A stretch of 32,000 nt of DNA from Planctopirus limnophila DSM 3776 (GTDB lineage: Bacteria; Planctomycetota; Planctomycetia; Planctomycetales; Planctomycetaceae): positions 3,930,001-3,962,000 of the forward strand of contig NC_014148.1 in the NCBI RefSeq assembly GCF_000092105.1. Reading direction: 5' to 3'. Within the stretch, counting starts at the first letter, position 1; the number at the start of each line of letters is the position of its first letter. The notes beneath the pieces are model-generated. The model ran no database searches. It saw nothing but the letters and a program-made list of their open reading frames with translations, and was not told where the DNA came from. Below are positions 5,409-32,000 of the stretch, in pieces. Position numbers and translations under genes: made by a program.

Positions 5409-5499
5409 GTGATCGTGAGCTGAATTTCCGCCAATTTTGCGTCATGAATCTTTGACGGAAAAAGGTTAGGTGTCCCAGGGTCGCCGACCTTCCATTTTT

Positions 5500-5549: not shown

Positions 5550-5563
5550 CAGGAGAAACGTTC

Positions 5564-5746
5564 ATGTTCATGCTGCTGGCTTTGCTCAGTTTCCTGGTGT
5601 TGGTGAGTTGTCTGGTGATTCGGCGGGAGCGTGTGCTCCGGCAGGCCTGGCAACATCTCGCTGCCCAGATCCTCTCGCGAAGGAATACTCCCGATGCGTC
5701 TTCTGATGTCACTACTGATCGGCACGATGCTGGTTTTGGCCAGTAG
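5564..5746 (+). CDS. hypothetical small membrane protein (60 aa)
   Basis: ATG at 5564 preceded by AGGAGA (5551-5556, 7-nt spacing). MFMLLALLSFLVLVSCLVIRRERV is a single TM helix. It overlaps the next gene by 53 nt in another frame. Confidence 0.3.
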   Translation: MFMLLALLSFLVLVSCLVIRRERVLRQAWQHLAAQILSRRNTPDASSDVTTDRHDAGFGQ

Positions 5747-15018: not shown

Positions 15019-15203
15019 CAACCCGTTTCTCTGAGGACAGTCCAGCGTGCGTTCTTACGAGAGATTGAAAAACGAACTGACCGTTGGAGACATACCAGTT
15101 TCGTGAATCCAACTTTCCACCAGTCATTGCTGAATAATTATCGATGAAAACTGCGTGCCGAAGCCGTTATGAACACATGCCTCGATCGAGTGTGAATTAC
15201 ATT

Positions 15204-15353: not shown

Positions 15354-15584
15354 AAATGGAGCCTTCTTCGTTCTTTGGAATCAAAGCTGCCTGAATCTGA
15401 GTTGCCGCTGCATCAGATCTAGACCATTTCTCCCTTGAGGCCCCTCCAGAGAGAGTGAGCCGAAATCAATGATCAGTGAGTCATCCACCGGTCTTCCATC
15501 TGGGGTGTTGCTCCGAGGGAAGCACGACAGTCGCTCGTCGTCAGGGTGGATAGGAAGTTGTTCACGCACGACAAGGCTCATTCA

Positions 15585-16961
15585 ATGACCACCTCCGCCA
15601 AAGCGACATCGATCCGGCTGTGGGATTTCAAGACCCCACCCATGCGTGCGTTCCACATGTCCTGGTTCGCGTTTTTTCTGTGTTTTTTCGCATGGTTCGG
15701 CATCGCACCACTGATGCCAGTCGTTCGCGATGAAATGCACCTCAGCAAGGATCAGGTGGGCTGGTGCATTATTGGATCGGTCGCGATCACAGTTCTTGCG
15801 CGGCTCTATGTCGGCTGGCTTTGCGACCGGATCGGCCCCCGTCTGGCATATAGCGGGCTGTTGGTGCTCGCTTCAATCCCTGTGATGGGAATCGGACTGG
15901 CCCACGATTTCACGACGTTTTTAATGTTCCGCATCGCGATCGGTGCCATCGGTGCGTCGTTTGTGATCACGCAGTATCACACTTCGATCATGTTTGCAAA
16001 GAACTGTGTTGGCACAGCAAACGCCACTACTGCCGGTTGGGGGAATCTTGGGGGCGGGGTGACGCAAATGGTCATGCCCACGCTCTTTGCACTTCTCATG
16101 GTCGCGTTCGGGTTGTCAACGGCCAGTTCTTGGCGATTCTGTATGCTGCTGGCCGGAGTGGTCTGCGCTATCACGGGGATCGCTTACTTTTTCCTCACGC
16201 AGGATACTCCAGAGGGAAACTTTGCAGAGCTTCGCGCTACTGGGAAAATGTCTCAAAAGTCGGCAGTCAAGGGAACGTTTCAAGAAGCTTGTCGCGACTA
16301 CCGCGTCTGGATTCTGTTTCTCGTCTATGGGGCCTGTTTCGGGATGGAACTGACGCTCGACAACATCGCGGCACTCTATTTCATCGACTATTTCGAAGAG
16401 CTGAAAACGGCTGATCCAGTCTACGCGCTGGGCATCGCAGGGTTCGTTGCAGGACTCTTTGGTTCAATGAACCTCTTCGCCCGCGCGCTGGGCGGCATCG
16501 CTTCAGATCGGTGTGCGGCGAAGTGGGCCCTGTCGGGCCGGGTCCGCTGTCTGTTCATTGTCGTCCTGCTGGAAGGGATGGCTCTTATGCTCTTCTCGCA
16601 GGCCCGAACCTTGCAGTTTGCCATTCCCGCGATGCTGCTATTAGGTCTCTTTGTCAAAATGTCGAATGGGGCGACTTATGCGGTCGTGCCATTCATCAAC
16701 AAGCGGGCACTCGGTTCGGTCTCCGGGATCGTTGGAGCCGGTGGAAATGCGGCGGCTGTCGCGGCTGGATTTCTTTTCAAAAGTTCGGTGGTGTCCTGGC
16801 CGACGGCTCTGTTCATTCTCGGGGTGATCGTGACGCTGGTATCAGTCAGCATACTAGCCATCCGCTTCGCGCCTCAAATCGAAAGCGAAGAGGCCACGCT
16901 TCCGATCCTGACAGGAGACGAGGCGGCCCCCGTTTTACCAGCCGGTGTCCAAGCTGTGTGA
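15585..16961 (+). CDS. narK: MFS nitrate/nitrite transporter (NNP family, NarK/NrtP type)
   Basis: ATG at 15585; the track ORF opens at GTG 15546. MRAFHMSWFAFFLCFFAWFGIAPLMP is a typical N-terminus. Both NNP signatures are present (TTAGWGNLGGGVTQ and SGIVGAGGNAAAV), with about 12 TM segments. Confidence 0.85.
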   Translation: MTTSAKATSIRLWDFKTPPMRAFHMSWFAFFLCFFAWFGIAPLMPVVRDEMHLSKDQVGWCIIGSVAITVLARLYVGWLCDRIGPRLAYSGLLVLASIPVMGIGLAHDFTTFLMFRIAIGAIGASFVITQYHTSIMFAKNCVGTANATTAGWGNLGGGVTQMVMPTLFALLMVAFGLSTASSWRFCMLLAGVVCAITGIAYFFLTQDTPEGNFAELRATGKMSQKSAVKGTFQEACRDYRVWILFLVYGACFGMELTLDNIAALYFIDYFEELKTADPVYALGIAGFVAGLFGSMNLFARALGGIASDRCAAKWALSGRVRCLFIVVLLEGMALMLFSQARTLQFAIPAMLLLGLFVKMSNGATYAVVPFINKRALGSVSGIVGAGGNAAAVAAGFLFKSSVVSWPTALFILGVIVTLVSVSILAIRFAPQIESEEATLPILTGDEAAPVLPAGVQAV

Positions 16962-16990
16962 GCTTCAATGAAATCACTCCTGTCTCCTGA

Positions 16991-17041
16991 TGCAGGATCC
17001 CGTGATCGGAGCAGTCGCTCGCGCCGTTCGCGGATCCTGCA
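16991..17041 (+). other. 10-bp perfect inverted repeat (hairpin, 31-nt loop) in the narK / Fe-S gene spacer
   Basis: tgcaggatcc (16991-17000) and ggatcctgca (17032-17041). Confidence 0.4.
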
Positions 17042-17204
17042 CTCGAAATCCCTCATGAGAAGGACACTCATCGAAGCTTTGAGGAAGGATGTGAACTTTG
17101 AATCGTGCGTTCGCGAATCACATGCCCTTCGGAAGACCTCAGAGACGTGCCACCCCTGGGCAACCATTTTGTTCGAAAAGACCTCCGTTTGAGAGTCCGG
17201 TCGT

Positions 17205-18989
17205 ATGAGCGACGCGTTGCCAATCACGAGGCCTCTGAGTCTGCAAGATCTGCTGGAAGGCTTCGGATCGGTCTCCGCGCCGCCTTCGAAAGGCGAGCAG
17301 ATGGTTCACCGACTGTTGCAAAAACAGCGGGAGCTCTCGGCCGTCGAACTCTTCGCAAAGGAGCACGCCGGTGGGACGATCAACGGCAGCAAATTACCCG
17401 ATCAGGCCCGTTTCTATGCCAGTCTGCTGCCTGCGACGCCCGTGGGCCCGGGGCAGCAGTACGGCTTCGAAGTCGATCTCGATCGCTGTTCGGGTTGTAA
17501 GGCCTGTGTGACAGCTTGCCACTCTCTGAACGGGTTGGATGATTCGGAGACTTGGCGCGATGTAGGATTACTCATCGGCGGAACCGAGACGCTTCCCGTG
17601 ATGCAGCATGTGACAGCCGCCTGCCATCATTGCCTTGAACCGGCCTGCATGACCGCCTGCCCGGTAAACGCCTACGAAAAAGACGCCTTCACGGGTATCG
17701 TCCGGCATCTCGATGATCAATGCTTCGGCTGCCAATACTGCACGCTGGCCTGTCCCTACAACGTCCCCAAGTACCACGCTGCCAAGGGGATCGTCCGCAA
17801 GTGCGACATGTGTTCCAACCGCCTGAAAAATGGCGAAGCACCGGCCTGTGTACAGGCATGCCCTCATGAGGCCATCTCTATCCGAATCGTCGATGTGTCG
17901 CGGGTCACCGAAAATGCGGAGGCAGACCACTTCCTCCCCGCTGCTCCCGAACCTTACATCACTCTACCGACAACCACGTACAGGACGACGCGGGTCTTTC
18001 CCCGCAATATGCTCCCGGCGGATTACTATTCGGTCAGCCCGCAACATCCCCATTGGCCATTAATCGTGATGCTGGTGCTGACACAGCTTTCGGTTGGAGC
18101 ATTCGCAGCGGGCAGTTTCCTGGAAGAGGCACTTGATACAGAACTCGCCACCGCTTTTCGTCCCATTCATGCAACAGGCGCACTCGTGCTGGGTTTGCTG
18201 GCACTGGGAGCCAGCACGCTTCATCTGGGACGGCCACTCTACGCTTTCCGAGGGATTCTGGGATTTCGGCATTCCTGGCTCAGCCGGGAAATCGTGGCCT
18301 TTGGATTATTTGCAGGTCTCGCTGTACCGTTTGCCGGGCTTTGCTGGGGATTGCCACTGCTGGAGGTCTCGGGCAGTCCCTGGGGGAAACTGGCTGGTGA
18401 ACTCCTCCCGACATTGTCACCGAGTGTCGCGTGCGTGGGAGTTATCGGTGTCTTCTGTTCGGTGATGATCTACGTCTTCACCAGAAGGGAACTCTGGTCG
18501 CTGGAGCGAACTTTGATCCGCTTTAGCCTCACGACGATACTTCTGGGCGTGGCGACAATCTGGCTGATGATGTGGCTGGCCGTTGGTTTTTTGAGCGATG
18601 ACGAGTGGCATCAGCTTGCTCAAAACTTGACTCGCCCTTTGGCCCGCTCGGTAATCATCCTGACCACACTCAAGCTGCTTTACGACATCTCGCTGCTGCG
18701 GCATCTGGCGACATTCCGCAATTCGCCGCTCAAGCGATCGGCACTCCTGGTTGTCGGCCCGCTGAGAGGTTTTTCCATCGGACGGCTCGTGTTGGGAGTC
18801 GTTGGAGGCGTGGTCATCCCCGCAGCCTTTGCGGCCGTTCCGATTCATGACCCGATCCAGTTCACAACGACATCGGCCGTTTTCGTGGGGCAGATGTGGG
18901 TTGCCTGCCTGGGGGGAGAATTGCTCGAGCGTTATCTGTTCTTCTCCGCTGTGTCGAACCCGCGTATGCCCGGAGGAGTGCGTTCATGA
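17205..18989 (+). CDS. fusion of a DmsB-like 4Fe-4S multicluster ferredoxin domain and a DmsC/NrfD-like integral membrane anchor
   Basis: 594 aa. The Cys clusters are [37 protein letters not shown] and [21 protein letters not shown]. The C-terminal half has about 8 hydrophobic helices with HLGRP and SWLSREI motifs, as in DmsC-type anchors. No twin-arginine signal is present. Confidence 0.8.
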
Positions 18990-21211
18990 GCTGGTATCAG
19001 GATAACCCCATTATGCAGCCATTACAGACACTTCTCCATCAGCGAGAGGGTTCCCTGACGCGCGCGTTACTGCAACAACCCGCAGGCTTTGGACTGGGCC
19101 AACTGCCCCAAAGCCAGTTGCCCGACGCAACGACGGACATGGTCTGTGGCTTCTGCTCGACGGGTTGTGGCCTCAAAGTCCATTTGAAGGAAGGTGAAGC
19201 GATCGGGTTGTCGCCAACTACTTCGTATCCGGTGAACCTCGGCATGGCTTGTCCGAAGGGGTGGGAAGCCTTGCGTGTCCTCGACGCTCCCGACCGCGCG
19301 ACGACACCTCTGTACCGAGCTGATAAGAACGGAAGGCTGGAACCTGTCGACTGGGATGCAGCGCTGAGACTTTTCACGGGCCGCTTTCGACAGATTCAGG
19401 AAAAGCACGGGCCCCACTCAGTGGCGTTCATCAGCACAGGCCAGATGCCCACCGAAGAGATGGCATTGCTCGGCGCGGTGGCCAAGTTCGGCATGGGCCT
19501 CAGGCACGGCGACGGCAATACGCGGCAGTGCATGGCGACGGCAGTGGTCGCCTACAAAGAGGCGTTCGGTTTCGATGCGCCTCCCTACACCTACGCCGAC
19601 TTCGAAGAATCGGACGCCATGGTGTTCGTGGGTAGTAACCCCTGCATTGCCCATCCCATTATGTGGGAGCGCGTCATGCGGAACCGCCGTTCGCCGGAGA
19701 TCATCGTCGTTGATCCACGCGGCAATGAAACGACGATGTACGCCACCCAGCATCTGGCCATCCAGCCCAAAACCGATCAGACACTCTTTTACGGCGTGGC
19801 CCGCCTCCTCATCGAACAAGGCCGGATTGACGAAAAGTTCGTCGAGCTATCGACGACGGGATTCGAGGAATTCGCCCGCTTCGTGAACGACTATAGCCTG
19901 GCCCGCACTGCATCCGAAACGGGTCTTGAGCCGAACCAGATTGAGCGATTCGCCTGCACGATCCACGAGAAAGAGCGAGTCTCGTTCTGGTGGACGATGG
20001 GGGTCAATCAGAGCCACCAGGGGGTGCGTACCGCGCAGTCGATCATCAATCTGGCACTGATGACGGGGAACATTGGCAAACCCGGAACCGGAGCGAATTC
20101 GATCACGGGCCAGTGCAACGCCATGGGTTCGCGGCTCTTCAGCAACACGACCAACCTTCTGGGCGGACACGATTTCAAGAACGCCGATCACCGCGCGAAG
20201 ATCGCGGGCATTCTGAGCATGGATGAGAGTGTCATCCCCACCGAGAACAGTTGGTCGTACCACGAAATCATGGAGGGAATTCTCAAAGAGAAAATCAAAG
20301 GACTGTGGATCATCTGTACCAACACGGCCCACTCGTGGATCAACCAGAACCTGGCCCGTGAAATGCTTTCGCGGCTCGATTTCCTGGTTGTGCAGGACAT
20401 GTACCACAATACGGAAACGGCCCAGATGGCTGACCTCGTCCTTCCAGCCGCTGGCTGGGGCGAGAAAGAGGGGACGTTTATTAATTCCGAGCGGCGCATT
20501 GGTCGTATCAAGAAGGTCAGGCGTGCGCCGGGGAAAGCGCTGGCCGACTTCCACATCTTTCAATTGGTTGCTGAGTATTGGGGCTGCGGAGAGCAATTCC
20601 GGCGCTGGTCTTCGCCCGAAGCCGTCTTTGAAGTTCTGAAGGAGTGTTCGCGCGGTATGCCCTGCGACTTCACGGGCGTTCAGAACTACCGCTGGATCGA
20701 AGAACAAGGGGGGGTGCAATGGCCCTGCCCTGAAGGGATGACCGCCCCCGTACAAGAGCGGCGTCTCTTCGAGGATGGTTGTTTTTATCATGCCGACGGT
20801 CGTGCAAAATTCCTCTTTGAGGCCTCCCGCCCTTTGACGGAATTGCCCAACGAGGCGTATCCGTTCATTTTGTTGACTGGAAGGGGAAGCGCTTCGCAAT
20901 GGCATACGCAGACCCGCACTGCGAAGTCGCCGGTCCTCAGGAAGTTGTATCCCGAGCGACCGTTTATCGAAATCAATCCGGCTGATGCACGAGCACTCAA
21001 GATCGCCCATAACGCCTGGGTCACCGTCGAGTCGCGACGAGGCCGCATGCGGGCGATGGCGCTCGTGACTCCTGCTGTGAGACAAGGACAGGTCTTCATT
21101 GCGATGCATTACGAGGGGACGAACCAGTTAACCGACGCGGTGTTCGACCCGTACTCAAAGCAGCCCTCGTACAAGGCTTGCGCCGTCAACGTCAAGGGAG
21201 GTGCGGAGTGA
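18986..21211 (+). CDS. nasA: molybdopterin (bis-MGD) nitrate reductase catalytic subunit, assimilatory NasA/NarB type
   Basis: ATG at 18986 overlaps the upstream stop (ATGA) and is preceded by GGAGGAG. It has the N-terminal 4Fe-4S motif [12 protein letters not shown]...MACPKG and molybdopterin oxidoreductase body motifs ([38 protein letters not shown]). About 741 aa with no Tat RRxF motif. Confidence 0.85.
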
Positions 21212-21426
21212 ATATTGACGCGTTTCGTTCCTCGTCGCGTAGTACGTTCCTGAATCCTCGAAGGGTGTGGTCTTGGGCAATTGGTGGCCTGGGTTGAGCA
21301 TCTTCGCGAACCCCTAACTCCTGCCAACCAGCGCTGAGGGTTCGAAGACTCACTGACAACCACCCGTCGACCCTGGCCGCCGATTCCAATCACGTGAATT
21401 GATCCCTTTTCAAGTGGTGCTTTTCC

Positions 21427-23274
21427 ATGACCCAAAACAACGGTTTCACTGATAGTCAGAAGAGTTATCTCCAGGGGTTTGCTTTGGGTGCCGACGTGGC
21501 CCGCAAGGTGAAAGGCTTGCCTGTCATTGCAGATAGCGGGGGTGGCTGTGTGGAAGCTGTTAACAGTCTGGCGACAACGATTCAAATCGGGCCGCGGGCA
21601 ACACAAGCCGCATTGCCTGCCACGGGAAGGAATCGAGAACTCGCCGCTCAGGAAAGGTTTCTGGCACAAGGCAAAAAACTCTCAAATGAAGAGCAGGCGA
21701 AGCGAGACAAGGATCCATTGTCGATCTGGCCGCAAATGCAGGCGGCGGCGGCGGAAGGCGTGTTTCCCAAGGGAACAGATGTCTTTCTATGGAAGTTTCA
21801 CGGGTTGTTCCAGGTGGCCCCCGCTCAGGATTCATTCATGTGCCGACTGCGGATCGCGGGGGGCGAACTCAGGAGCTGGCAACTTCGCGGCATTGCCGAT
21901 CTGGCCCAGGAGCATGCGGGCCATTATCTGGATGTCACGACGCGGGCGAACCTGCAACTTCGCGAGATTTCGGCGGAAAACGGCTGCGCAGTCCATACAA
22001 GCCTTATCGAGTTGGGACTCGTCAATAAAGGCTCAGGAGCCGACAACATCCGCAATGTGACTTCGTCGGCGACTTCTGGCTTCGATGCAGACGAGCTGAT
22101 CGATACACTCCCTTATGCCAAGGCAATGCACCACCATATTCTCAATGACCGGGAGTGTTACGGCCTGCCAAGAAAGTTCAACATCAGCTTCGACGGCGGA
22201 GGACGCATCGCGACCCTGGAAGATACAAACGACGTCGGCTTCCAGGCAGTGCGAGTCGCCGAAGTGAACGCGACGAACGCCTGCCCAGCTGGCATCTATT
22301 TTCGCTTGACGCTCGGTGGCATCACCGGGCACCACGATTTCGCCCGCGATACGGGCATCCTCATCAAGCCCAGTGAAAGTATTGCCGTCACTTCGGCCAT
22401 CGTGAAGGTGTTCGTCGATCACGGCGACCGCACCGACCGCAAGAAGGCCCGGCTGAAGTATCTGCTCGATGATTGGGGCTTCGCGAAATTCATCGAACAT
22501 GTCGAGCGGGAACTGGGAAGGCCTCTCCTCCGGATGAGTAGCGAAGGTTGCGAACCAGCCCGTCCCGTTGATCGCTGGGCTCATATCGGGTTCCATGCCC
22601 AGCTGCAAGAGGATCGCCATTACTGCGGCGTCGTGTTGCCTGTAGGTCGCCTCACCTGCGACCAGGCCCGGGGATTGGCCAGGCTTGCGGAAAAACATGG
22701 TTCCGGCCGCATCCGATTAACCGTCTGGCAGAACCTGCTCATCCCAGATATCGCGACTGCTGACATCCCTGCCGTCCAGCGGGGAATTGAAAATCTGGGG
22801 TTGGAGTGGCGCGCTACGTCTGTACGTAGTGGACTGATTGCCTGTACGGGAAGCGCGGGGTGCAAATTCGCCGCTGCCGACACCAAACGCCACGCGCTGC
22901 TGCTGGCAGATCATCTTGATGAGCGGATCGAACTCGACGCACCGATCAACATCCACTTCACCGGTTGCCATCATAGTTGTGCTCAGCATTACATTGGCGA
23001 CATCGGCTTACGCGGGACGAAGGTCGAAGTCGACGACGATCTGGTCGACGGATACGAGATCGTCGTTGGTGGCGGCTATGCAGACCAGCAGGCCATCGGC
23101 CGCCAGCTTTTTCCCCAGGTTCCCTTTACCGAAGTTCCCCGCCTTGTTGAGCGGCTTCTCGGCTTTTATGTCGATGCCCGCGACGAGTGCGAGCCGTTCT
23201 CGAAGTTCATCAATCGGCATTCCATTGAGCGACTGCGGGAAGTGACTCACTTCCATCCCGTGCTGGTTCCATAA
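21427..23274 (+). CDS. nirA: sirohaem/4Fe-4S nitrite (or sulfite) reductase hemoprotein, NirA type, with N-terminal extension
   Basis: 615 aa. Cluster and sirohaem ligands [15 protein letters not shown] ... [18 protein letters not shown]. Duplicated nitrite/sulfite reductase ferredoxin-like halves. The nitrate-gene context favours nitrite reductase. Confidence 0.8.
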
Positions 23275-23321
23275 GCCGATAATCTCCGACCAGTTTCCCC
23301 ACATCTTTGGGAGTACAAGAT

Positions 23322-24986
23322 ATGACTCAAACCTTCTCGATTCTTCCCGAAAGCGCGCCCTTCACGGAAGAGCAGCGCGCCTGGCTGAATGGTTTCCTGG
23401 CAGGATGGATCGGACTGCAATCAACAGGCACAACGCCGGGTTGCTCGCCTGAAGCAGTTTTGCCATTGGCCGATTCACCGGAAAGTGAACTCTCTACCAC
23501 ACAGAAAGTGGAAGAGGATTTTCCCTGGCACGACCCGGCGCTTCCACTCGACGAGCGGTTGCGGCTGGCCGAAGGAAAACCATTACAACGGCTGATGATG
23601 GCAGCGATGGCACAGCTCGATTGTGGCACTTGCGGTTACAACTGTCAGCGTTATGCCGAGGCCATCATCAGCGGAGAGGAGAAGAGTCTCAAACTTTGCA
23701 CCCCCGGAGGGAAAGAGACCGCGAAAGTCCTCAAGGAGTTGTTCACCAGGCCTACCGAATCAGGGACCAACAGTCATACGAACGGTCATGCCAATGGGAA
23801 CACGTCCGGCGGGAAGGTGGCCCACGAAATCCTCGACGCTCTAACAGGTCATTCGGCCAAAGGACAATCGGTCTGGAATCGGCAGAACCCGTACCAAGCC
23901 CCATTACGTCTTGTACGGGAACTTAATGGCGAAGGTTCCGACAAGCGAACCTCCCATGTCGAAATTGACCTTACAGGGAGCGGCTTGACCTATCGTGTCG
24001 GCGATTCGTTAGGAGTCTATCCGTCCAATTGCCCGGAGCTGGTTTCTAAAGTGGTTCAGGCTGTTGGTGCAAAAGGAGACGAAATGGCGGTCGTCGACGA
24101 ACAGACGCTGCCGCTCTCGACTGCGCTGGCGGAAAAATTCTGTCTTTCAGAAATCACCGATGAATTGATCGAGCGATTGCTGGCTGTCACATGGGAACCC
24201 GAGCATCAGGAATGGCTCCGGCAAGTGATCGCCGAGAGCGACCTGATCGATGGCTGGGATGTTCTCGAACTACTCACGCGGATCTCTCCGTCGCAATTAC
24301 GACCGGCGGAGTTGCTCGCGGTCCTCTCGCCCTTGAAGCCAAGACTCTATTCCATCAGCAGCTCACTGAAGGCCTGCCCCGACCAGGTTCACTTGACCGT
24401 GGGACGTGTCGCATGGGAGTTTCAAGGTCGTGAGCGCAAGGGGGTCGCTTCGACAATGTTCGCCGATCGTCTGAAACCCGGCAGTCGCGTGCGGGTGTTC
24501 ATACAACCATCGCATGGATTTACGCTTCCAGAAAATCCAGAGACGCCTGTGATCATGATTGGGCCAGGGACAGGAATCGCCCCCTTTCGTGCATTTCTGC
24601 AGGAACGCCGGGTGACATGTGCTCCGGGGAAAAACTGGCTCTTCTTTGGTGATCAACGGGCAACGACCGATTTTCTGTATCGTGAAGAACTTGAAGAACT
24701 ACAGAAGTGTAACCTGTTAACACGGCTTGACTGCGCCTTCAGCCGCGACCAGGAGGAGAAGATCTACGTCCAACACCGAATGCTCGAGCAGGGAGACGAA
24801 CTCTGGAAGTGGCTCCAAGATGGGGCTCACATCTACGTGTGTGGAGACGCTAAGCGGATGGCTGTAGATGTTGATCAGACACTTCGCCAGATTATTGGTC
24901 AGTATGGTATGCTTAGTGAGGAAGAGACAGGAGATTTTGTGGCCAACATGATCCAGTGTCAACGATACTGTCGTGACGTCTACTAG
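23322..24986 (+). CDS. CysJ-like FAD/NAD(P)H ferredoxin-reductase-type flavoprotein with a Cys-rich N-terminal domain (no flavodoxin/FMN domain recognised)
   Basis: ATG at 23322; the track opens at TTG 23307. FNR-module motifs RLYSISSS, GPGTGIAPFRAF, YVCGDAKRMAVDV and the C-terminal RYCRDVY match CysJ/CPR-type reductases. The N-terminal ~185 aa instead contain APFTEEQRAWLNGFLAGW and a CGTCGYNC...C cysteine cluster. Confidence 0.8.
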   Translation: MTQTFSILPESAPFTEEQRAWLNGFLAGWIGLQSTGTTPGCSPEAVLPLADSPESELSTTQKVEEDFPWHDPALPLDERLRLAEGKPLQRLMMAAMAQLDCGTCGYNCQRYAEAIISGEEKSLKLCTPGGKETAKVLKELFTRPTESGTNSHTNGHANGNTSGGKVAHEILDALTGHSAKGQSVWNRQNPYQAPLRLVRELNGEGSDKRTSHVEIDLTGSGLTYRVGDSLGVYPSNCPELVSKVVQAVGAKGDEMAVVDEQTLPLSTALAEKFCLSEITDELIERLLAVTWEPEHQEWLRQVIAESDLIDGWDVLELLTRISPSQLRPAELLAVLSPLKPRLYSISSSLKACPDQVHLTVGRVAWEFQGRERKGVASTMFADRLKPGSRVRVFIQPSHGFTLPENPETPVIMIGPGTGIAPFRAFLQERRVTCAPGKNWLFFGDQRATTDFLYREELEELQKCNLLTRLDCAFSRDQEEKIYVQHRMLEQGDELWKWLQDGAHIYVCGDAKRMAVDVDQTLRQIIGQYGMLSEEETGDFVANMIQCQRYCRDVY

Positions 24987-24999
24987 AACCTTTGCACAC

Positions 25000-25242
25000 T
25001 CAGAATTGATCGGTTAAGAGGGATGCGAGCCAGAGGAAGCCTGCGAAGTTCGCGGCTTTCTTATCATAACGGGTGGCGATGCGGCGAAAGCGTTTCAGGG
25101 CTCCGAAGAACCTCTCGATCACATTCCGATGCCGGTAGCTCTCCTTGACGCACCGCTTTCTTGCCTTGCGGTTGGCCTTCGGTTTGATGCAGGCTTTCGC
25201 CCACATCCGCTTCACACGCAGCCGGATCGCGTAGGTGCCCAA
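25000..25242 (-). pseudogene. IS5-family (IS427-like) transposase, C-terminal fragment
   Basis: ...CIKPKANRKARKRCVKESYRHRNVIERFFGALKRFRRIATRYDKKAANFAGFLWLASLL is the conserved YxxRNxIERFFxxLKxFRRIATRYDK C-terminus. Only about 80 codons remain, and it abuts copy B at 25243/25245. Confidence 0.7.
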
Positions 25243-25244
25243 AA

Positions 25245-25493
25245 ATGCTGTTCTCCGACGTAGGCAATGACAGTGAAGCCGCTCGTCAGATACCCCTGGC
25301 TCGTGGCATCATCCCCCACATTCGCCGCAGAAACACCGCTCATGGAAGTGCACTGGGAAAAACTCCGGAAAGTAACAATACAGAGGTGGTGGAACGCACC
25401 ATCAGTTGGCTGGCAGGCCGTGGCCGCTTCCATGTTCGCTACGACCGCCATCAGCAGATCATCCCACCTGACCCACGCAGCCCACTGTTTTGA
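25245..25493 (+). pseudogene. IS5-family DDE transposase fragment (copy B, related to 11989..12409)
   Basis: ...SDVGNDSEAARQIPLARGIIPHIRRRNTAHGSALGKTP...VERTISWLAGRGRFHVRYDRHQQII. In a hand alignment against copy A, 68 of 84 checked nucleotide positions were identical. It is truncated at both ends. Confidence 0.7.
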
Positions 25494-25682
25494 CGTACTG
25501 GGGAGGCGGGTAGCACGCCTGACAAAGGAATTCTTACCAGCTTCCAAAGTGAACACACGCGGGCCAAAACAGTCTCAGAACCTGAGAACTGATGGAACGT
25601 TCATACAGAAAATGCTCTAATGGCTGTTTGGTCCATGAGTGTGGTTAGGGATCACTTCCTGATCTTATGGAAGGAATCAGCG

Positions 25683-25952
25683 ATGTACATTGTTTTAGAT
25701 CTTGATCTGAGAGTCGTGCATCCCACTGCCAGCCAAGAAAAATTTCGCCAGTATCTTTCGGAAGAAGGGTGGACGCCGAGCCCACGAATCCCTCGATGGT
25801 ACAAAGTTCTCAAAAAGAATCGTCTACCCGTTACTGCCATTATAAGAGCACGAACGGAAGTCAGTATGCTGGCATCGGCGGCAGGCGTTGTCAGCTACCA
25901 AGCGACGGTGCATACCAATGACATTGCGAGAATGTCATGGAAGGAAGGGTGA
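25683..25952 (+). CDS. hypothetical protein (89 aa)
   Basis: ATG at 25683 preceded by AAGGA (25671-25675): MYIVLDLDLRVVHPTASQEKFRQYLSEEGWTPSPRIPRWYKVLKKNRLP... No family recognised. Confidence 0.35.
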   Translation: MYIVLDLDLRVVHPTASQEKFRQYLSEEGWTPSPRIPRWYKVLKKNRLPVTAIIRARTEVSMLASAAGVVSYQATVHTNDIARMSWKEG

Positions 25953-26143
25953 ATTCAACCCCTCATCGATCACACAATCTCTATTCCACCCGGAACATTT
26001 CATCGGTCAACCATATTGTGATCTATGGCAATCGTGTCCATCGACACAATCGACCCTTCGAGTCACTGCTTTTCTCCGGATGGCTCAAGCGTTGTTTTTG
26101 AGTAGCAGAGTAATCCTGAATCGATCGACCTGTTGAGCGATTC

Positions 26144-27376
26144 TCAATCTGCCGAGGGAATCAACAATTCTGAGCTGTAAGGCTCATTTGTCAGCATCGC
26201 TGCAACATCAAAAGGTGTCAGTTGAGGTGCCCCCATCAACAACTGTTTGGGGATCATGACCTGGAATCCTGCGAAAACGCCTGGTGCTGGATGCACCGTG
26301 TCAAGTTTGACTCCAAGCTCAGCAGCCATCAGGTAGATGGGGAGGAGATCCATGGAGTGATCGCTGGAGTCGGAAATGAAGGCATCCACAGCGGCAAACA
26401 AAGGTAGTGATTGGTCGACAGTCCATATCTTTTCACGAGCAATCATGGTCAGTATTAAATAGGCAGTGTCGTGATTTTTCACACTCAACTGAATGGCAAT
26501 ATCGTCTCCATCGAGATTGGAGATTCGCCCCAACAGGAGCGAAATTATTGCTACCAGCCTTGTCAAATCACTGACCACTTTGACTCCGGGTGTGATATCA
26601 CTCGACAAAACGCTAACACCTTCCGGAGACTCCATTTGCTCAAATCGATGAATCGACTCATAGAAGACAGCATTCAGATCCAATTCCTGGATCGACACAG
26701 GATCTGTGGGGGTGACTCGATGGATCATACGTGCTAATCGAGTCAGGAATTCGTATTCCGCCGCCCCTTTGTCATTTGTGACGAGCGAATGATTACGAGA
26801 GGCCTGATTCTCCCGCAGCTTCTTTGCAGCTTGCGAATAATCCCAAAGCCCATGCAAAGCCTGAGGATTCCAACGCTCTGCTGCCGCACAAAACCCCAGC
26901 AGTCCTCGCATGGAGTCACTGTGAGATAACTGTTGCCAGATGAAAGCCTTCTGAGCCAGCAATTCATCGTGGCTGACGCGCAGTTGGTAAAGATCGAGAG
27001 CCTGCCTGAGCAATATTCTGAGTGAGTCGAAATCCCAAGGTTTTGTCACATATTGATAGGCACCTCCGGTATTCACCGCAGCAATCGCACTGGGTAAGTC
27101 TGAGTACGCAGTTGTCAAGATCCGCACGGTCAAAGGGTGCTGTTTACGAGAGTAGTCCAGAAGGTCAACTCCCTGTTCACCCGGCATCCTCTGGTCTGAT
27201 AACAGGACTCCGATGGGAGCCTCCGAGTTATCCAGTATCTGTCTCGCATCCGCAGCATTCTGAGCTGTGACAATCGAGAATTCATCGTTGAAAACGCGGT
27301 CGAAATACTTGAGCGCAGGAGCCTCGTCGTCGACATAAAGCACACGCGGTGAACTGGCGGGAGTATTAAGCGACAT
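26144..27376 (-). CDS. response regulator with REC domain and a degenerate histidine-kinase-like (DHp plus CA-like) output domain; PhcR-like architecture
   Basis: REC: RVLYVDDEAPALKYF...VLLSDQRMPGEQGVDLL...ILTTAYSD...YVTKPW. Downstream there is an H-box-like QQLSHSDSMRGLL, an N-box-like LVAIISLLLGRISNL and a G2-like MAAELGVKL, without the glycine-rich G1/G2 boxes. The start overlaps the kinase stop by 11 nt. Confidence 0.8.
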   Translation of the reverse strand: MSLNTPASSPRVLYVDDEAPALKYFDRVFNDEFSIVTAQNAADARQILDNSEAPIGVLLSDQRMPGEQGVDLLDYSRKQHPLTVRILTTAYSDLPSAIAAVNTGGAYQYVTKPWDFDSLRILLRQALDLYQLRVSHDELLAQKAFIWQQLSHSDSMRGLLGFCAAAERWNPQALHGLWDYSQAAKKLRENQASRNHSLVTNDKGAAEYEFLTRLARMIHRVTPTDPVSIQELDLNAVFYESIHRFEQMESPEGVSVLSSDITPGVKVVSDLTRLVAIISLLLGRISNLDGDDIAIQLSVKNHDTAYLILTMIAREKIWTVDQSLPLFAAVDAFISDSSDHSMDLLPIYLMAAELGVKLDTVHPAPGVFAGFQVMIPKQLLMGAPQLTPFDVAAMLTNEPYSSELLIPSAD

Positions 27377-29957
27377 TGGCTGTTTCCATCTTTACGGAAG
27401 GAAGGGAGAACGTGAATTCGGTGAACACTCCAGGTTGACTATCAACCTCGATGCTCGATTCGTATTGATTCAAGATCGTGTGACAAACGGAGAGCCCCAG
27501 GCCGGTCCCTTTACCGACATCTTTTGTCGTAAAAAACGGTTCGAACAATCGTGAGCGAACCTGGCTTGATATGCCGACGCCGTTATCGCGAACTTTGATG
27601 AGAATTCGTGATTCTTGTTCTGCAGCCACGATTTTAATGACGCCACCTTTATCTCCATGACGTTCGACAACCGCATGGGCTGCGTTTGTCAAAAGATTTA
27701 CAAAAACCTGTACGACATGGCTTTCAACAATCATGGCCTCGATTTCATCTGGAACATCGATCATGACTTCGCACTGATTCAACTCGTGCGAGACAAAACG
27801 CCTCGCCATTTCCACCACTCTTGAAAGTGCGACCGGACGACGAGGTGGAGCAGCATCCGGGTGAGCAAATGTTCGCAAATCGCGAGTAATATCTCCAATC
27901 CGATTCAGGCTGCTGGTAGCATCATCAAGTGATTCATCAACCAATGCGATGCTTGAAGTCGTTGGACTGCGAGTTTTCATAACATTCTTGGCATAGGCAA
28001 TCGCCATCTGGGCATGATTGACAGGGTTGTTAAATTCATGTAATAACCCGGCAGCTAAACTACCTATCGCGTTCATTTTCTCCGATTGAATGAGTCGAGC
28101 TTCGACTTTTTGCCGCTCTATAATTGCCTGTTCGAGTTCGATCGATCGCTGGCGCAGACTGCTTTGCAGAGTTGCCGCTGCAATCAGATTTCGGCATCGA
28201 GTCGTTAACTCGGTAGGGCTGAATGGTTTAGTGAGGAAGTCATCGACCCCGGCTTCGAGCATCTTGATTTTGAACGAGTCGTCGACACGAGCCGTTAGAA
28301 CGAGAACTTTTGTGTCTTTAGCCGCTTCTGACGTCCGTATTGATTCCGCAACTTCAAGACCCGTTTTGCCAGGCATCATCGCATCGAGAATGAGTAAATC
28401 TGGCTTCTTCGTTTCGACCGCTGACACGGCCTCAATCCCATCCCGGCAAACAATCACGTTCCCAAGAACGTCGAGAATGCGAGACAGGCAAAGCCGCATA
28501 TCAGCATCGTCATCTGCGAGTACAATGGTGGCGGTTGATACTTCCTTGCTGGGCTGACGATCATTCTGAGAACTTTGCTGGCGAACTGAGGCGAGTGCAG
28601 CAGCACGTCGTAAGTCTGCCCAACTGTCAAATTCTGGCTCTCCAGCAATTTTGGGGGGTGCGTGTACGACCGGAAACTGAACTGTGACAGTCGTGCCTTT
28701 TCCCGGCTGGCTTTCTAAAAGGAGTTCTCCATTGTGAGCTGTTGTAATCTCACGCACGAGCGAAAGCCCTAAACCTAAGCCCTGATATTTTCGAGATTCT
28801 GAGTTATCTACCTGGACGAATCTCTGTCCGAGTGATGGAAGGTCGGAGGCTTCCATCCCAATCCCGGAATCGCAGACACGAAGAGTCGTCCATTGGGAAT
28901 CAGCGGCAGCAGATACCGAAACAGAGCCACCCTCCGGTGTGAATTTGATGCCATTCGAAAGAAGATTCAAAATCACTCGCTCAAGGAGGTATTCGTTTGC
29001 ATCAATTTCTACATCGTCTTCAGGAAGATCCAGACTCAATAAGACGCCCTTACCACGGGCCAGCGGCTGTGCTGATTCGACCAGAGTTTTCAATTGATGG
29101 GAAAGACAATAGCGGTTCTTGATGACTGCATGTGTCGATTGATCGAAACGAACAAGCTCCAAAAGATCATTAATCAACCCAAGCAGTCTCAGGCCACCCT
29201 GCTGTATGAGTCTGAGAGCGTCTCTGACTGTCGGCGCCAGGCGTTCTGCTGGCCATGCGAGCATTTCCTCGACGGGTGCCATAATGAGAGTGAGTGGAGT
29301 TCGAAGTTCATGGCTGATGTTTGCAAAAAATCGCCCCTTCATCTCGTCAGCAGCTGTCAATTCTGAATTGCGTACTTCCAGGTCGTGTCGAAGATCAAAT
29401 TCTCGTCGTCTTGCTTGAGAGAAAATATGGCAGGCCGTTGCACAAATAATGGATGTCATGGCAATGAACGTCGAGTTCATGACGAGTGCATCGATTCGCA
29501 AGGGAATTCGACTATGTGCAATACAGGCAATGAGATACATCCCCAGAACACCAGAGCAGAATGCGAGAGCCTGCCATGCGTTGTAGGGGAGCAATACACA
29601 GGTGCCCAGGATCGTCAGATTTAGGCCCGCATAAAATGGTGATACAGAACCTTCAGTGACATAAAGCATCCAGGCGATCGCGGCAGTTGGAGAATAGGCC
29701 CAGATGGTACTCATGAGGCCGACGTGTACCTTATCGGGAATGATAAATAGCGTTGCTAAAACGACACCAACAACAATTTCGCATACGATTCTCGCCCATA
29801 GAATCGAATAAAAGGCTTCAGGATAGCCTGCCAAGTCAAGGAGAATCCCCGCAGGGATCAACGTCAATGTGAGAACGCAACCAATGCGCGTACGGCGTAG
29901 CCAAAGGTCACGCTGAAGTCGTTCGAAATCGAGATCAAGTTCTGAGGAAGTGGACAT
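27366..29957 (-). CDS. membrane hybrid sensor kinase with two complete transmitter modules (TM region, HisKA-HATPase, REC, HisKA-HATPase)
   Basis: 863 aa with about 6 N-terminal TM helices. The first transmitter has the H-box FFANISHELRTPLTLI plus LLSNGIKFTPEGG...DSGIGM...GLGLGLSLV. The REC domain reads IVLADDDADM...LLILDAMMPGKTG...FLTKPF. After a coiled coil, the second transmitter has the H-box LAAGLLHEFNNPVNHA plus NLLTNAAHAV...DNGVGI...FFTTK...GTGLGLSV. Confidence 0.85.
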   Translation of the reverse strand: MSTSSELDLDFERLQRDLWLRRTRIGCVLTLTLIPAGILLDLAGYPEAFYSILWARIVCEIVVGVVLATLFIIPDKVHVGLMSTIWAYSPTAAIAWMLYVTEGSVSPFYAGLNLTILGTCVLLPYNAWQALAFCSGVLGMYLIACIAHSRIPLRIDALVMNSTFIAMTSIICATACHIFSQARRREFDLRHDLEVRNSELTAADEMKGRFFANISHELRTPLTLIMAPVEEMLAWPAERLAPTVRDALRLIQQGGLRLLGLINDLLELVRFDQSTHAVIKNRYCLSHQLKTLVESAQPLARGKGVLLSLDLPEDDVEIDANEYLLERVILNLLSNGIKFTPEGGSVSVSAAADSQWTTLRVCDSGIGMEASDLPSLGQRFVQVDNSESRKYQGLGLGLSLVREITTAHNGELLLESQPGKGTTVTVQFPVVHAPPKIAGEPEFDSWADLRRAAALASVRQQSSQNDRQPSKEVSTATIVLADDDADMRLCLSRILDVLGNVIVCRDGIEAVSAVETKKPDLLILDAMMPGKTGLEVAESIRTSEAAKDTKVLVLTARVDDSFKIKMLEAGVDDFLTKPFSPTELTTRCRNLIAAATLQSSLRQRSIELEQAIIERQKVEARLIQSEKMNAIGSLAAGLLHEFNNPVNHAQMAIAYAKNVMKTRSPTTSSIALVDESLDDATSSLNRIGDITRDLRTFAHPDAAPPRRPVALSRVVEMARRFVSHELNQCEVMIDVPDEIEAMIVESHVVQVFVNLLTNAAHAVVERHGDKGGVIKIVAAEQESRILIKVRDNGVGISSQVRSRLFEPFFTTKDVGKGTGLGLSVCHTILNQYESSIEVDSQPGVFTEFTFSLPSVKMETANVA

Positions 29958-29959
29958 TT

Positions 29960-31378
29960 TTAAACTTCCCCTTCCATCGGCTTTCTGACTTCCAAAAACA
30001 GATTTTCACCTGTTGTGTCATCGTAAACGACACATGTGGAGTTTTCTGGTGCCATGGCACGCATCCCACATTCATCACGAAGAACCAAAGTCCATTCAAG
30101 AATGTGCTCCATAAATCCTCGGCTGGGATGTTTGGTATGGACATTGGTGACCAAAACTGTCCCTCCTTGAACAACCGAGTCATAAAAGAGTTCAACCAGG
30201 CGTTGGCATATCGGATCACTGAGGTAATCAAACAGTCCTGCACAGTAGATTAAATCAAAGTGTTCCTTGGGGAATGGAGGCTCTTCCTCCATAGTTTCCA
30301 GCAATTCGTGAATTGACCGTCTTGTGAATTTCACATCGAGGGATGACTTCGAGGAGGCCAGAATCTGCGAAATGGTCGACTTTGCGTGTTCGAGAGCCTG
30401 TGCATCAAAATCAAGGAGTTCCAACTCCGTCCAATTCGCGCCTTCACCCGATTGTACGAAACGTTGAACTTCGACGGCAGGCCCGCAGCCCACATTTAAC
30501 ACTCGAAAGCGACGGCCCGAGGAGGCATGCTTTTGGGAATTCTCTTTAAGTTTATTGAGTAAAATATCAATCCGATTGCGGTGGGCCTGGGCTGTCGAAA
30601 TCTTGAGTGGAAACGAATTGACAATCCGCGCATAGGTGTTGGCACCTTCCCACTGATCTCTGACAATCATATTCACCATCTGATAATCACCTGCATATCC
30701 CAATGGCTTTGAAAATGTGCGGTGAATATAGGGCGAGCACATGAGCAGCGGGTGGAGTTCCCGCTGGACAAACGACTTATGGGTATTCACGACCTTACGA
30801 TCAACGAGTTTTGCCACATGCTCGAATTGATCGAAGAGTTCATAAAACTTAGGAAGAACCTGGCTAGCGACATCCTCAGTGAATTCTGTGACAAGATGAT
30901 TGGATTGTGGAAGCTCACTCAGACCAGAAACCACCTCGCTATGCGATAGCCAGCGGCTCAGATCCCCCAGAAAATTTCGAATTGTCGTCACGAGTTGTTG
31001 GTAAGTGGGTTCAAGGCGCTCCTGAGCAGCAGACCAATCACCCAGAAAATTCTCGACCTCTTTGCGAAGTGCAGGCCCAGGGTGCAGATCGGTCAAATCG
31101 GCCCAGGGTTCCACCAATGATGCGGAGACAACCGCCAGCAGCCCTGTATTCACAAGGGTTGTTACAACAGCGCGACCCTGATAGATGGGGCGATCGCCTC
31201 GGCGAATGACAACCTGCTGCAAAACTTCACTGACCTGGACAATCGAATAAGGGTTGTAGACCTCAAACACAATCGCTGCTCGACTGAGCCGCAAAATTGT
31301 TCCGATTGCTGCCGTTCCCTGGCAGTTTTTAAAACTGACGACATTGTCGGCAGCCAGCTTTCCGATCTTCGCCATCAT
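29960..31378 (-). CDS. class I SAM-dependent methyltransferase with extended N-terminal region (possible degenerate PilZ-like barrel); PhcB-like candidate
   Basis: 472 aa. SAM motif I RVLNVGCGPAVEVQRFV, post-I LELLDFD and motif II-like LIYCAGLFDYLSD are present. The N-terminal ~100 aa (GTILRLSRAAIVFEVYNPYSIVQVSEVLQQVVIRRGDRPIYQGRAVV) look like a PilZ-type beta barrel without an RxxxR motif. The stop lies 2 nt before the kinase start. Confidence 0.75.
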   Translation of the reverse strand: MMAKIGKLAADNVVSFKNCQGTAAIGTILRLSRAAIVFEVYNPYSIVQVSEVLQQVVIRRGDRPIYQGRAVVTTLVNTGLLAVVSASLVEPWADLTDLHPGPALRKEVENFLGDWSAAQERLEPTYQQLVTTIRNFLGDLSRWLSHSEVVSGLSELPQSNHLVTEFTEDVASQVLPKFYELFDQFEHVAKLVDRKVVNTHKSFVQRELHPLLMCSPYIHRTFSKPLGYAGDYQMVNMIVRDQWEGANTYARIVNSFPLKISTAQAHRNRIDILLNKLKENSQKHASSGRRFRVLNVGCGPAVEVQRFVQSGEGANWTELELLDFDAQALEHAKSTISQILASSKSSLDVKFTRRSIHELLETMEEEPPFPKEHFDLIYCAGLFDYLSDPICQRLVELFYDSVVQGGTVLVTNVHTKHPSRGFMEHILEWTLVLRDECGMRAMAPENSTCVVYDDTTGENLFLEVRKPMEGEV

Positions 31379-31538
31379 GATTCCTTGTTGTGGTGATTTT
31401 CGGAATGATCAAGTTGAATCAGAATCAGCAACTGTAGATTCCATCAAGGTAAAGAATCCTGATGGCGTTTTCATCGATTCTTCGCAAGAAAACATCCTCT
31501 AGTACAGCTGAGAGCATCACAGACATTCGAAAAGAACA

Positions 31539-31994
31539 TTAGTAGATGGGAATAGCTTCCTGATCACGAGGTCGCCGGATGGTCTGGGGATCGAAATCTT
31601 CGTCTAATAGTTGAACGCGTTCAAGATTCTCGATGTGAAAACCGCAAACTTTCTGATGCAAAGATGAGTGTGCGAAAACCTTCCAGTTTTGAGTACTCAG
31701 CTCAAGCCAAAGTGGTGCGGAAAGTGTTGACCAACTGCCACTCTGATTTTGTGAGCAGACCCAAAGCCGTGCTTTCTTTCGTGTTTCGATAGATTTTACC
31801 AGAGAGGCCAGACAGCCATGTATGGAAACATCTTTGGCAGGTGGTTCAAACTGAATTGCCTGCATTACACGGAGCATGAACTCCTTATGGTTCGTTGAGA
31901 GTCCTTCAAGAACTTCTGCTACAAATGCATCCGTCAGTTGTTTGACGGCTGGTAGAGATTGCAAATTTGATGACAAAACGGCCATTAACAGCAT
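31539..31994 (-). CDS. hypothetical protein (151 aa)
   Basis: ORF with ATG at 31994. No family recognised. Same strand as the methyltransferase operon and 160 nt upstream of it. Confidence 0.4.
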   Translation of the reverse strand: MLLMAVLSSNLQSLPAVKQLTDAFVAEVLEGLSTNHKEFMLRVMQAIQFEPPAKDVSIHGCLASLVKSIETRKKARLWVCSQNQSGSWSTLSAPLWLELSTQNWKVFAHSSLHQKVCGFHIENLERVQLLDEDFDPQTIRRPRDQEAIPIY

Positions 31995-32000
31995 GGCGGT

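Follow-up and report, generated by a model that had tools for sequence, protein, structure and literature searches.

Three adjoining minus-strand genes in the genome of the planctomycete Planctopirus limnophila DSM 3776 probably form a small-molecule signalling module of the Phc type, related to the phcB-phcS-phcQ genes of Burkholderiales and present here in a rearranged, 'hybrid' form. They lie in a stretch of 32,000 nucleotides (nt) of contig NC_014148.1 (positions 3,930,001 to 3,962,000; hereafter the window, from whose first letter all coordinates are counted) and encode, in order, a 472-amino-acid (aa) methyltransferase dependent on S-adenosylmethionine (SAM) (29960..31378), an 863-aa hybrid sensor histidine kinase (27366..29957) and a 410-aa response regulator (26144..27376). 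We are highly confident that these genes belong to the PhcB, PhcS and PhcQ families, and on balance we expect that the module both makes and senses its own signal; the narrower proposal, that a 3-hydroxy fatty acid methyl ester is the signal, is more tentative and somewhat less likely than not. The family assignment is already known, in that annotation pipelines have given PhcB and PhcQ names to relatives of these proteins, and what is new here is the architecture and context of the module, not a new kind of system.

The three genes are tightly packed, with the methyltransferase and kinase genes separated by 2 nt (29958-29959) and the kinase and regulator genes sharing 11 nt (27366-27376). A first-pass annotation of this DNA had described the same packing, at coordinates identical to those in the list of open reading frames (ORFs), and had read the genes as a match to phcB-phcS-phcR in order and architecture. 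This reading holds for the first two genes, a PhcB-type methyltransferase followed by a PhcS-type kinase, and fails at the third, which is of the PhcQ type. An NCBIfam scan of the three proteins gave no equivalog-level match, and a search of Rfam gave zero matches within the window.

Sequences were compared with the Phc proteins of Cupriavidus and Paraburkholderia, with Cupriavidus necator (L038) as the reference. A scan of species-representative genomes led by a Paraburkholderia protein returned at least 595 relatives, the best 80 loci of which were all from Burkholderiales (Paraburkholderia, Cupriavidus, Janthinobacterium and related genera) and included no Ralstonia; Cupriavidus was adopted for this reason, and because a complete Phc system has been published for it. 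The Cupriavidus Phc proteins are 56-75% identical to those of Ralstonia solanacearum GMI1000, and Cupriavidus produces a factor resembling 3-OH PAME, the methyl ester of 3-hydroxypalmitic acid (PMC2842291). In the characterized systems, PhcB is needed for synthesis of 3-OH PAME or 3-hydroxymyristic acid methyl ester (3-OH MAME) and PhcS is the signal sensor (PMC6989110), PhcR has been described as a prototypical Rec-HK, that is, a receiver joined to a histidine kinase (PMC13269768), and in Ralstonia PhcQ binds and stabilises PhcA (PMC13320629).

The first gene encodes a PhcB-family methyltransferase

The product of 29960..31378 (471 aa according to gene callers, which start it at the second Met) is a putative signal synthase that aligns with C. 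necator PhcB at 42.6% identity over 460 aa (E 2e-135). This similarity is not a property of the SAM-binding fold alone. Pfam domains of class I SAM-dependent methyltransferases are confined to aa 290-410, the preceding ~285 aa have no Pfam match, and these N-terminal 285 aa taken by themselves are 42% identical to PhcB (E 4e-76). The PhcB assignment made in the first-pass annotation is thus borne out by specific similarity along the whole protein.

An AlphaFold2 (AF2) model of the methyltransferase (m99a0bdb995ae; predicted local distance difference test score, pLDDT, 84.8) contains three domains: an N-terminal beta-barrel (aa 13-88; 31115..31342) that belongs to no Pfam family and is strongly conserved with PhcB, a helical middle domain (aa 102-287; 30518..31075) and a Rossmann-fold, SAM-binding catalytic domain (aa 291-465; 29984..30508) that is matched by Pfam Methyltransf_25/31/23/12/11. 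Alignments across phyla contain more than 100 invariant columns. Among the conserved motifs are KPLGYAGDY (224-232) and AHRNR, both of which are invariant in the middle domain, together with LNVGCGPA (294-301) and YCAGLFDY (378-385).

Homologues of this enzyme are numerous. A large protein search recovered more than 4400 of them, the best named ones coming from Pirellulaceae (Anatilimnocola among them), other Planctomycetota, Phycisphaeraceae and Verrucomicrobiota, and many carry the Joint Genome Institute (JGI) name 'extracellular factor (EF) 3-hydroxypalmitic acid methyl ester biosynthesis protein'. A tblastn search against plasmids found a full-length homologue at 43% identity on a plasmid of Paraburkholderia graminis, followed there by a 445-aa kinase and then two receiver proteins. 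In an exhaustive search of 50%-identity representatives the number of clusters was 514 at a threshold of E <= 1e-30 and rose to 2405 when this was relaxed to E <= 1e-10, and on these similarity counts the PhcB-like family is sizeable and widespread. Operons of this kind are commonplace among environmental bacteria. The earlier statement that characterised systems of this type are betaproteobacterial fits the literature, in which we found no paper on Phc components or a Phc-type system in Planctomycetota, nor any study outside Burkholderiales, but not the sequence family with its at least 514 clusters at the stricter threshold.

The kinase joins a PhcS-type sensor to two transmitters

The kinase begins with a polytopic membrane sensor (aa 1-195; 29373..29957) of about 5-6 hydrophobic segments. 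Its first ~190 residues align in BLASTP with the membrane domains of the Paraburkholderia and Cupriavidus kinases, and an hhalign comparison of 34 hybrid-kinase sensor domains with 15 PhcS sensor domains from Burkholderiales gave a probability of 100% and an E-value of 5.9e-51 over 197 columns, in agreement with the first-pass description of a PhcS-type membrane kinase. The Pfam label PF20968 (MASE8) is precomputed for the sensor of an identical protein (L084) and of two relatives (L082, L168). We did not reproduce this label, as an hmmscan of kinase aa 1-195 against Pfam was empty even at E <= 1; the discrepancy may reflect a difference in library version or filter. NCBIfam gave no match in the N-terminal part of the kinase either.

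The remainder of the protein shows the hybrid, two-transmitter layout that had been noted earlier, with Pfam placing HisKA/HATPase_c at 206-430, Response_reg at 478-587 and a second HisKA-like/HATPase region at 612-856. The first transmitter (28668..29342) is of the ordinary HisKA type, with H216 in the motif SHELRTPL and intact N (331-339), G1 (363-368) and G2 (393-398) boxes. The internal receiver (REC; 28197..28526; Response_reg E 1e-23) has its phospho-acceptor, D525, within LILDAMMPG (522-530). The second transmitter (27390..28124) has H640 in the motif LLHEFNNP, with its N, G1 and G2 boxes likewise intact, and is 35.6% identical to the C. necator PhcS transmitter over 261 aa (E 4e-46) and 36% identical to that of Paraburkholderia. 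The kinase can thus be described as a PhcS-type sensor and a PhcS-like transmitter between which a HisKA/HATPase and REC module is inserted.

We also considered the possibility that the hybrid kinase is an end-to-end fusion of PhcS and PhcR, and rejected it. In such a fusion the first transmitter would be the PhcS-like one, whereas it is the second that resembles PhcS (36%, against 25% for the first); moreover, the internal RECs of hybrid kinases form a separate clade of their own in a tree of REC domains and do not group with PhcR.

The regulator groups with PhcQ and carries a predicted pseudokinase domain

The third gene (26144..27376) encodes a receiver (aa 12-121; 27014..27343) that is recognised by Pfam (Response_reg E 1.8e-16) and by its invariant columns, namely the acidic pair D16/D17, the phospho-acceptor D61 and K112 in a KPWD motif. 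The ~280 aa that follow have no match in Pfam or NCBIfam. In the first-pass annotation this protein was taken for PhcR and the window was said to lack a PhcQ-like gene, which would make the locus a strict phcB-phcS-phcR operon whose third gene is a PhcR orthologue with an active kinase output and in which PhcQ is absent. Similar gene order and sizes favour this view, as do the profile-profile alignment of the regulator family with PhcR over residues 11-378 and the Rec-DHp-CA fold (a receiver followed by dimerization/histidine-phosphotransfer, DHp, and catalytic/ATP-binding, CA, domains) that the regulator model shares with proteins of the LvrB/PhcR type. Some relatives of the regulator also keep an H-box His and a G1 box, and relatives at ~30% identity carry precomputed Pfam HATPase_c/HisKA hits.

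The receiver itself, however, lies nearer to PhcQ. Together with the helix that follows it, it shows 41.7% identity with C. necator PhcQ across 163 aa, as compared with 38.7% over 119 aa for PhcR, and the family profile aligns with PhcQ at E 9e-55 (residues 5-211) versus 8e-42 for PhcR in hhalign; the C-terminal ~200 aa do not align with PhcQ. The REC tree places the regulator within the PhcQ clade, apart from the PhcR clade, in which no gene of the window has a REC, and 'probable response regulator PhcQ' is the name that JGI gives to homologues of the regulator. Both earlier statements, that the regulator is PhcR and that PhcQ is missing, are therefore overturned: by receiver and linker similarity, the protein belongs to the PhcQ lineage and is not a PhcR orthologue.

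The output domain speaks against an active kinase. An AF2 model of the regulator (m159131a6eeab; pLDDT 82.6) consists of the REC, long helices and an alpha/beta sandwich, and its top Foldseek match in PDB, over the full length (~388 columns), is the Rec-DHp-CA kinase LvrB (8vc9, E 2e-14), with further matches to the CA domains of ZraS, DivL, HK853 and ThkA. The model, Foldseek, hhalign and motif comparison together delimit a DHp/CA-like domain at aa 140-378 (26243..26959) from which every catalytic motif has been lost. At the H-box site the regulator has the Glu/Arg stretch AAAERWNP (164-171) versus LAAGLAHHIRNS in relatives, so that the phospho-acceptor His is gone (as it is in the Pirellulales relatives); AREKIW replaces the DxGxG of the G1 box, HSMDLL replaces the GxGxG of the G2 box, and the N box is lost too. 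A protein without these elements cannot be an active kinase, and the output domain is accordingly classed, on its motifs, as a catalytically dead pseudokinase. Of the first-pass claim of a kinase-like output, the fold stands, through the LvrB match and the PhcR alignment, while the domain proves degenerate. Taken together with the PhcQ-like receiver, these losses largely refute a strict phcB-phcS-phcR operon, which we now regard as very improbable.

The hybrid-form regulators differ in how far this degeneration has gone. In some members of the family the His of the H box survives, together with a G1 box of the form DxGxG; neither the Asn of the N box nor the G2 box is present in any of those inspected (P0146, P0190, P0204, P0163, P0182, P0187). 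Within this family, then, the kinase domains seem to grade from possibly competent for phosphotransfer to fully dead.

The methyltransferase-kinase pair is conserved in two wiring forms

To place the module among its relatives, we surveyed the neighbours of 83 loci from Pirellulales relatives and metagenomes (L082-L084, L088-L167). The metagenome scan returned at least ~590 relatives, of which 80 diverse loci at 38-48% identity, without taxonomy, were taken. A kinase with a homologous membrane domain directly follows the methyltransferase in 80 of the 83 loci, and the contigs of the other three end too early. As the pairing is found in 80 out of 80 informative loci, this adjacency is not due to chance.

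This result also disposes of the most sceptical account of the locus, namely that a generic two-component system happens to sit beside an unrelated class I methyltransferase and that the likeness to Phc goes no further than common domains. Library searches taken alone would allow it, since Pfam and NCBIfam show generic Methyltransf_*, HisKA, HATPase_c and Response_reg domains only, below equivalog cut-offs. The account is refuted, and its probability is negligible, because the similarity extends beyond those domains, into the N-terminal part of the methyltransferase (E 4e-76) and the membrane domain of the kinase (E 5.9e-51), and because the adjacency is constant both in the 80 informative loci and in the best 80 phcBSRQ loci of Burkholderiales.

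In the latter, the order phcB-phcS-phcR-phcQ is conserved with exceptions that concern PhcR. PhcB, PhcS and PhcQ are always retained in the Burkholderiales loci examined, while PhcR is cut to a receiver-only protein of ~134 aa in Paraburkholderia (L002-L022) and is missing from two Janthinobacterium loci (L034, L064). PhcQ is reportedly the main regulator of the system, and the reduction or loss of PhcR in Burkholderiales agrees with this.

Across the relatives the module occurs in two wirings. In the split form, seen in 26 complete loci, a 445-aa kinase is accompanied by a ~400-aa Rec-HK and a ~330-aa PhcQ. In the hybrid form, seen in 33 loci and in the window, an 850-940-aa kinase is accompanied by a single regulator of ~400-425 aa. 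Close relatives of the P. limnophila locus share with it a four-gene block made up of an HTH_11 regulator, the methyltransferase, the hybrid kinase and the ~410-aa regulator. This block is found on identical Logan contigs, in an 85%-identical relative (L173), in two metagenome-assembled genomes (MAGs) at 50-55% identity (L082, L083) and in the complete genome of the cultured Anatilimnocola aggregata (Pirellulaceae; L168, with the methyltransferase orthologue at 4931-6331). In MAGs of Phycisphaeraceae and Pirellulaceae the form is likewise hybrid, and the upstream regulator is of the AraC or GerE kind, not HTH_11. The co-conservation of the three genes anticipated in the first-pass annotation was thus observed, with their order kept in Pirellulales relatives, in Phycisphaeraceae and in 80 of the 83 loci surveyed.

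The genes flanking the four-gene block differ in each relative. Over the signalling module (26-32 kb) the G+C content is 0.48-0.50, as against 0.56-0.62 in most of the window. The lower G+C content, along with the differing flanks in L082, L083, L168 and L173, suggests that the module travels as a unit or was acquired horizontally.

Two kinds of neighbour bear on the substrate of the methyltransferase. In 11 loci (L107, L108, L132, L136, L145, L150, L124, L105, L109, L095 and L171, a Verrucomicrobiota MAG being included), a fully reducing type I polyketide synthase (PKS) of ~2100 aa, with the domains KS-AT-DH-ER-KR-ACP, is encoded on the same strand and ends directly before the methyltransferase. 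In 7 others (L089, L129, L141, L147, L160, L165 and L169) an outer-membrane channel of the FadL/TodX family adjoins the module. Such neighbours support a fatty-acyl-like substrate and a hydrophobic signal, and the PKS-linked loci are candidates for a different, PKS-derived methyl-ester signal. Two further features of these loci may be recorded: PKS loci with a long enough downstream flank (L107, L132, L136, L145 and L150, and L108 in part) contain 2-3 extra receiver proteins, and in L169 a ketoacyl synthase gene is also nearby.

An HTH_11/WYL-like regulator lies upstream

The window ends within a further minus-strand gene, which encodes a transcription regulator (31539..32000) and is separated from the methyltransferase gene downstream of it by 160 nt. 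Of this gene the window contains the 3' part (151 of ~235 codons); the full gene (235 aa) was read on an identical Logan contig (L084). Its product matches Pfam HTH_11 (E 5.7e-8) and, weakly, WYL (E 0.13). A profile built from four orthologues matches PafBC in PDB (6sj9, E 2.7e-6, positions 5-210), with weak matches to CapW and BrxR (E 0.004-0.04). An HTH_11-type gene occupies the same upstream position in L082, L083, L168 (A. aggregata) and L173. In other lineages the upstream gene encodes an AraC or GerE protein, a response regulator, YceI, a PKS, a porin, a transposase or an unrelated protein, and we rejected the notion that a transcription regulator always precedes the methyltransferase, as the upstream gene varies outside the closer relatives. 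The intergenic region (31379..31538, minus strand) has a Shine-Dalgarno-like AAGGA motif 5 nt before the ATG of the methyltransferase gene. A consensus scan for sigma-70 promoters and terminators performed no better than on shuffled sequences, and such a scan does not cover planctomycete promoters.

A working model and its alternatives

These observations lend themselves to a model in which the PhcB-family methyltransferase would use SAM to form the methyl ester of a fatty-acid-like carboxylate, for which 3-hydroxy fatty acids are the precedent. Homology to PhcB and the PKS and FadL neighbours in related loci suggest that the product could serve as a hydrophobic, diffusible signal, and the end-to-end homology of the sensor domain suggests that it would be sensed in the membrane by the PhcS-type polytopic part of the kinase. 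From the architecture and the intact motifs, we would expect phosphoryl groups to flow from H216 to D525 inside the kinase; the receiver would then control the second transmitter (H640), as in Rec-controlled kinases (LvrB; PMC13269768) and in keeping with the LvrA architecture, and H640 would in turn serve D61 of the downstream regulator. Since the regulator has no DNA-binding domain and its DHp/CA-like domain is predicted to be catalytically dead, it most likely acts through protein-protein contact, in the manner of Ralstonia PhcQ on PhcA. The upstream HTH_11/WYL-like regulator is a candidate, if a speculative one, for the partner of this pseudokinase.

Several points weigh against this model. 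The chemistry and physiology of the family are known only for its Burkholderiaceae members, and an identity of 42% does not fix the substrate. Foldseek comparison of the methyltransferase model with PDB gives only generic small-molecule C- and O-methyltransferases, so that the substrate cannot be inferred from structure, and a sequence search of PDB gave zero hits, with no solved relative. Within the window no PKS, FadL or fatty-acid gene is adjacent to the module, and the ORFs of at least 200 aa include no LysR-family or PhcA protein, as the first-pass annotation had already remarked of PhcA. Our comparisons rest on Cupriavidus and Paraburkholderia proteins and not on those of R. solanacearum, the REC tree was built by neighbour joining and carries no support values, and the C-terminal part of the regulator on its own matches PhcR weakly (E 5e-5, probability 68%). 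Finally, conservation of the upstream HTH_11 regulator does not extend beyond the closer (Pirellulales) relatives.

An alternative is a role outside cell-cell signalling, in which the methyltransferase modifies an envelope lipid, or detoxifies or activates a hydrophobic metabolite, and the kinase belongs to a homeostatic or xenobiotic circuit that reads the state of the membrane or an exogenous hydrophobic compound and controls the operon of the enzyme. A membrane-embedded sensor could read any lipophilic cue, the structural matches of the enzyme are to generic natural-product methyltransferases, and the neighbours found elsewhere (PKS, FadL, YceI, an alpha/beta hydrolase, a short-chain dehydrogenase) would suit lipid metabolism. 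Against such a role, in the only members that have been studied this enzyme produces, and its partner sensor perceives, a secreted autoinducer, an invariant pairing of enzyme and sensor in one operon across phyla is a hallmark of autoinducer synthases and their receptors, and no lipid-biosynthesis genes are linked to the module in the window. We consider a non-signalling role unlikely, though deserving of real weight, and retain the Phc-type signalling module as the preferred reading.

A broader conclusion would be that Planctomycetota and other bacteria of the Planctomycetota-Verrucomicrobiota-Chlamydiota (PVC) group possess a working Phc-type autoinducer system, in which a methyl-ester lipid signal is perceived by PhcS-type sensing and passed through an LvrA-like relay to a pseudokinase that acts on an HTH/WYL-type regulator. 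This is plausible, if somewhat short of what we would call probable. If true, it would be the first defined quorum-sensing circuit in Planctomycetota, as far as the literature that we searched shows, and the 'Ralstonia-specific' Phc system would prove to be a single branch within a modular family of wide distribution, whose PKS-coupled members make signals of new chemistries. To our knowledge, almost all work on Phc signalling has concerned its part as a virulence switch in Ralstonia and its close relatives. The distribution described here, with hundreds of 50%-identity clusters in Planctomycetota, Verrucomicrobiota and Proteobacteria, instead portrays the synthase-sensor pair as an old and widely spread module that occurs in split and hybrid wirings, and the PKS- and FadL-linked variants suggest that signals may be specific to lineages. 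The module is also a concrete candidate for signalling in planctomycetes, for which a cultured carrier, A. aggregata, exists.

Other features of the window

Beyond the regulator gene, ~1.1 kb (24987-26143) separate the module from the nearest reductase gene and contain only short overlapping ORFs (100-117 aa). One of these (25620-25952) had no match in Pfam, and Rfam was likewise negative; the stretch may be non-coding DNA or an orphan gene bordering the block of low G+C content. On the plus strand, 15546-24986 resembles a cluster for assimilatory nitrate/nitrite reduction, with genes for a transporter of the major facilitator superfamily (15546-16961), a 4Fe-4S/DmsC-like protein (17205-18989), a molybdopterin oxidoreductase (18896-21211), a nitrite/sulfite reductase of the NIR_SIR type (21427-23274) and a FAD/NAD-binding reductase with an Fe-S domain (23307-24986). 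Adjoining this cluster on the minus strand (12414-15021) is a second two-component pair that is unrelated to the Phc-type module. It consists of a kinase (13057-15021), in which a PilJ-type sensor at the N terminus is followed by PAS, HisKA and HATPase domains, and a response regulator of the NarL/GerE type (12414-13136), and it probably controls the nitrate cluster. Further away, the product of a minus-strand gene (2456-3436) is a DUF1559 (SBP_bac_10) protein and carries an N_methyl motif of the prepilin type; its family is greatly expanded in Planctomycetota, in keeping with the planctomycete origin of the window.

Comparison with known systems

The module is closest to the Phc system of Ralstonia and Cupriavidus. 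Both begin with a PhcB-family methyltransferase (~43% identity over the full length), and in both the next gene encodes a kinase, in which the polytopic sensor is shared and the transmitter is 36% identical. Both also include a PhcQ-lineage receiver protein, whose REC is of the KPWD type and has a conserved helix after it, and in both the methyltransferase, kinase and receiver components are devoid of DNA-binding outputs. The differences lie in the wiring. The window kinase carries an inserted HisKA/HATPase and REC, whereas Cupriavidus has the split form with a 445-aa PhcS; a separate PhcR is absent from the window, and the sole Rec-HK unit is the C-terminal half of the hybrid kinase. The window regulator exceeds PhcQ by ~80 aa and still has a recognisable, dead DHp/CA domain, and in place of a nearby LysR/PhcA protein there is the linked HTH_11/WYL-like regulator.

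That upstream gene may have its own parallels in the HTH-WYL regulators PafBC, CapW and BrxR, as its product has an N-terminal HTH_11 domain and a C-terminal region that matches their profiles, if weakly (WYL E 0.13; PDB profiles 2.7e-6 to 0.04). Known members of the PafBC/CapW/BrxR type control genes for DNA damage or phage defence, not signalling operons.

The phosphorelay invites comparison with the Lvr system of Leptospira, in which LvrB, a Rec-HK, is phosphorylated by LvrA (PMC5863495). In its cytoplasmic part the window kinase shares the DHp/CA-REC-DHp/CA layout of LvrA, its residues 199-854 align with positions 194-818 of the LvrA model (NCBIfam NF047465), and His218 and D524 of LvrA are nearly equal in position to H216 and D525 (PMC5863495). 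LvrB, for its part, is the best PDB match of the window regulator, with which it shares the Rec-DHp-CA fold, and neither the LvrA-like nor the LvrB-like protein has a DNA-binding domain. The kinase nevertheless scores 258 bits against a family cut-off of 1200, and LvrA is cytosolic with a PAS sensor, unlike the window kinase with its PhcS-type membrane sensor. LvrB has kinase activity and hands its phosphate on to LvrC, while in the window regulator the His is missing, as are the motifs for ATP binding; in addition, the word 'methyltransferase' is absent from the texts of both Lvr papers (PMC5863495, PMC13269768). The module thus resembles the Lvr relay in its wiring, not in family membership.

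For the regulator, a further analogy is offered by Caulobacter DivL, which is among its structural matches and likewise has a DHp/CA fold without the phospho-acceptor His, with signalling likely to proceed by partner binding. DivL is not controlled by a receiver and is unrelated in sequence to the window regulator, so the likeness is one of analogy only. Set beside LvrB and PhcR, the predicted pseudokinase would represent a natural 'dead' counterpart of these Rec-HK proteins, through which their signalling without catalysis could be studied.

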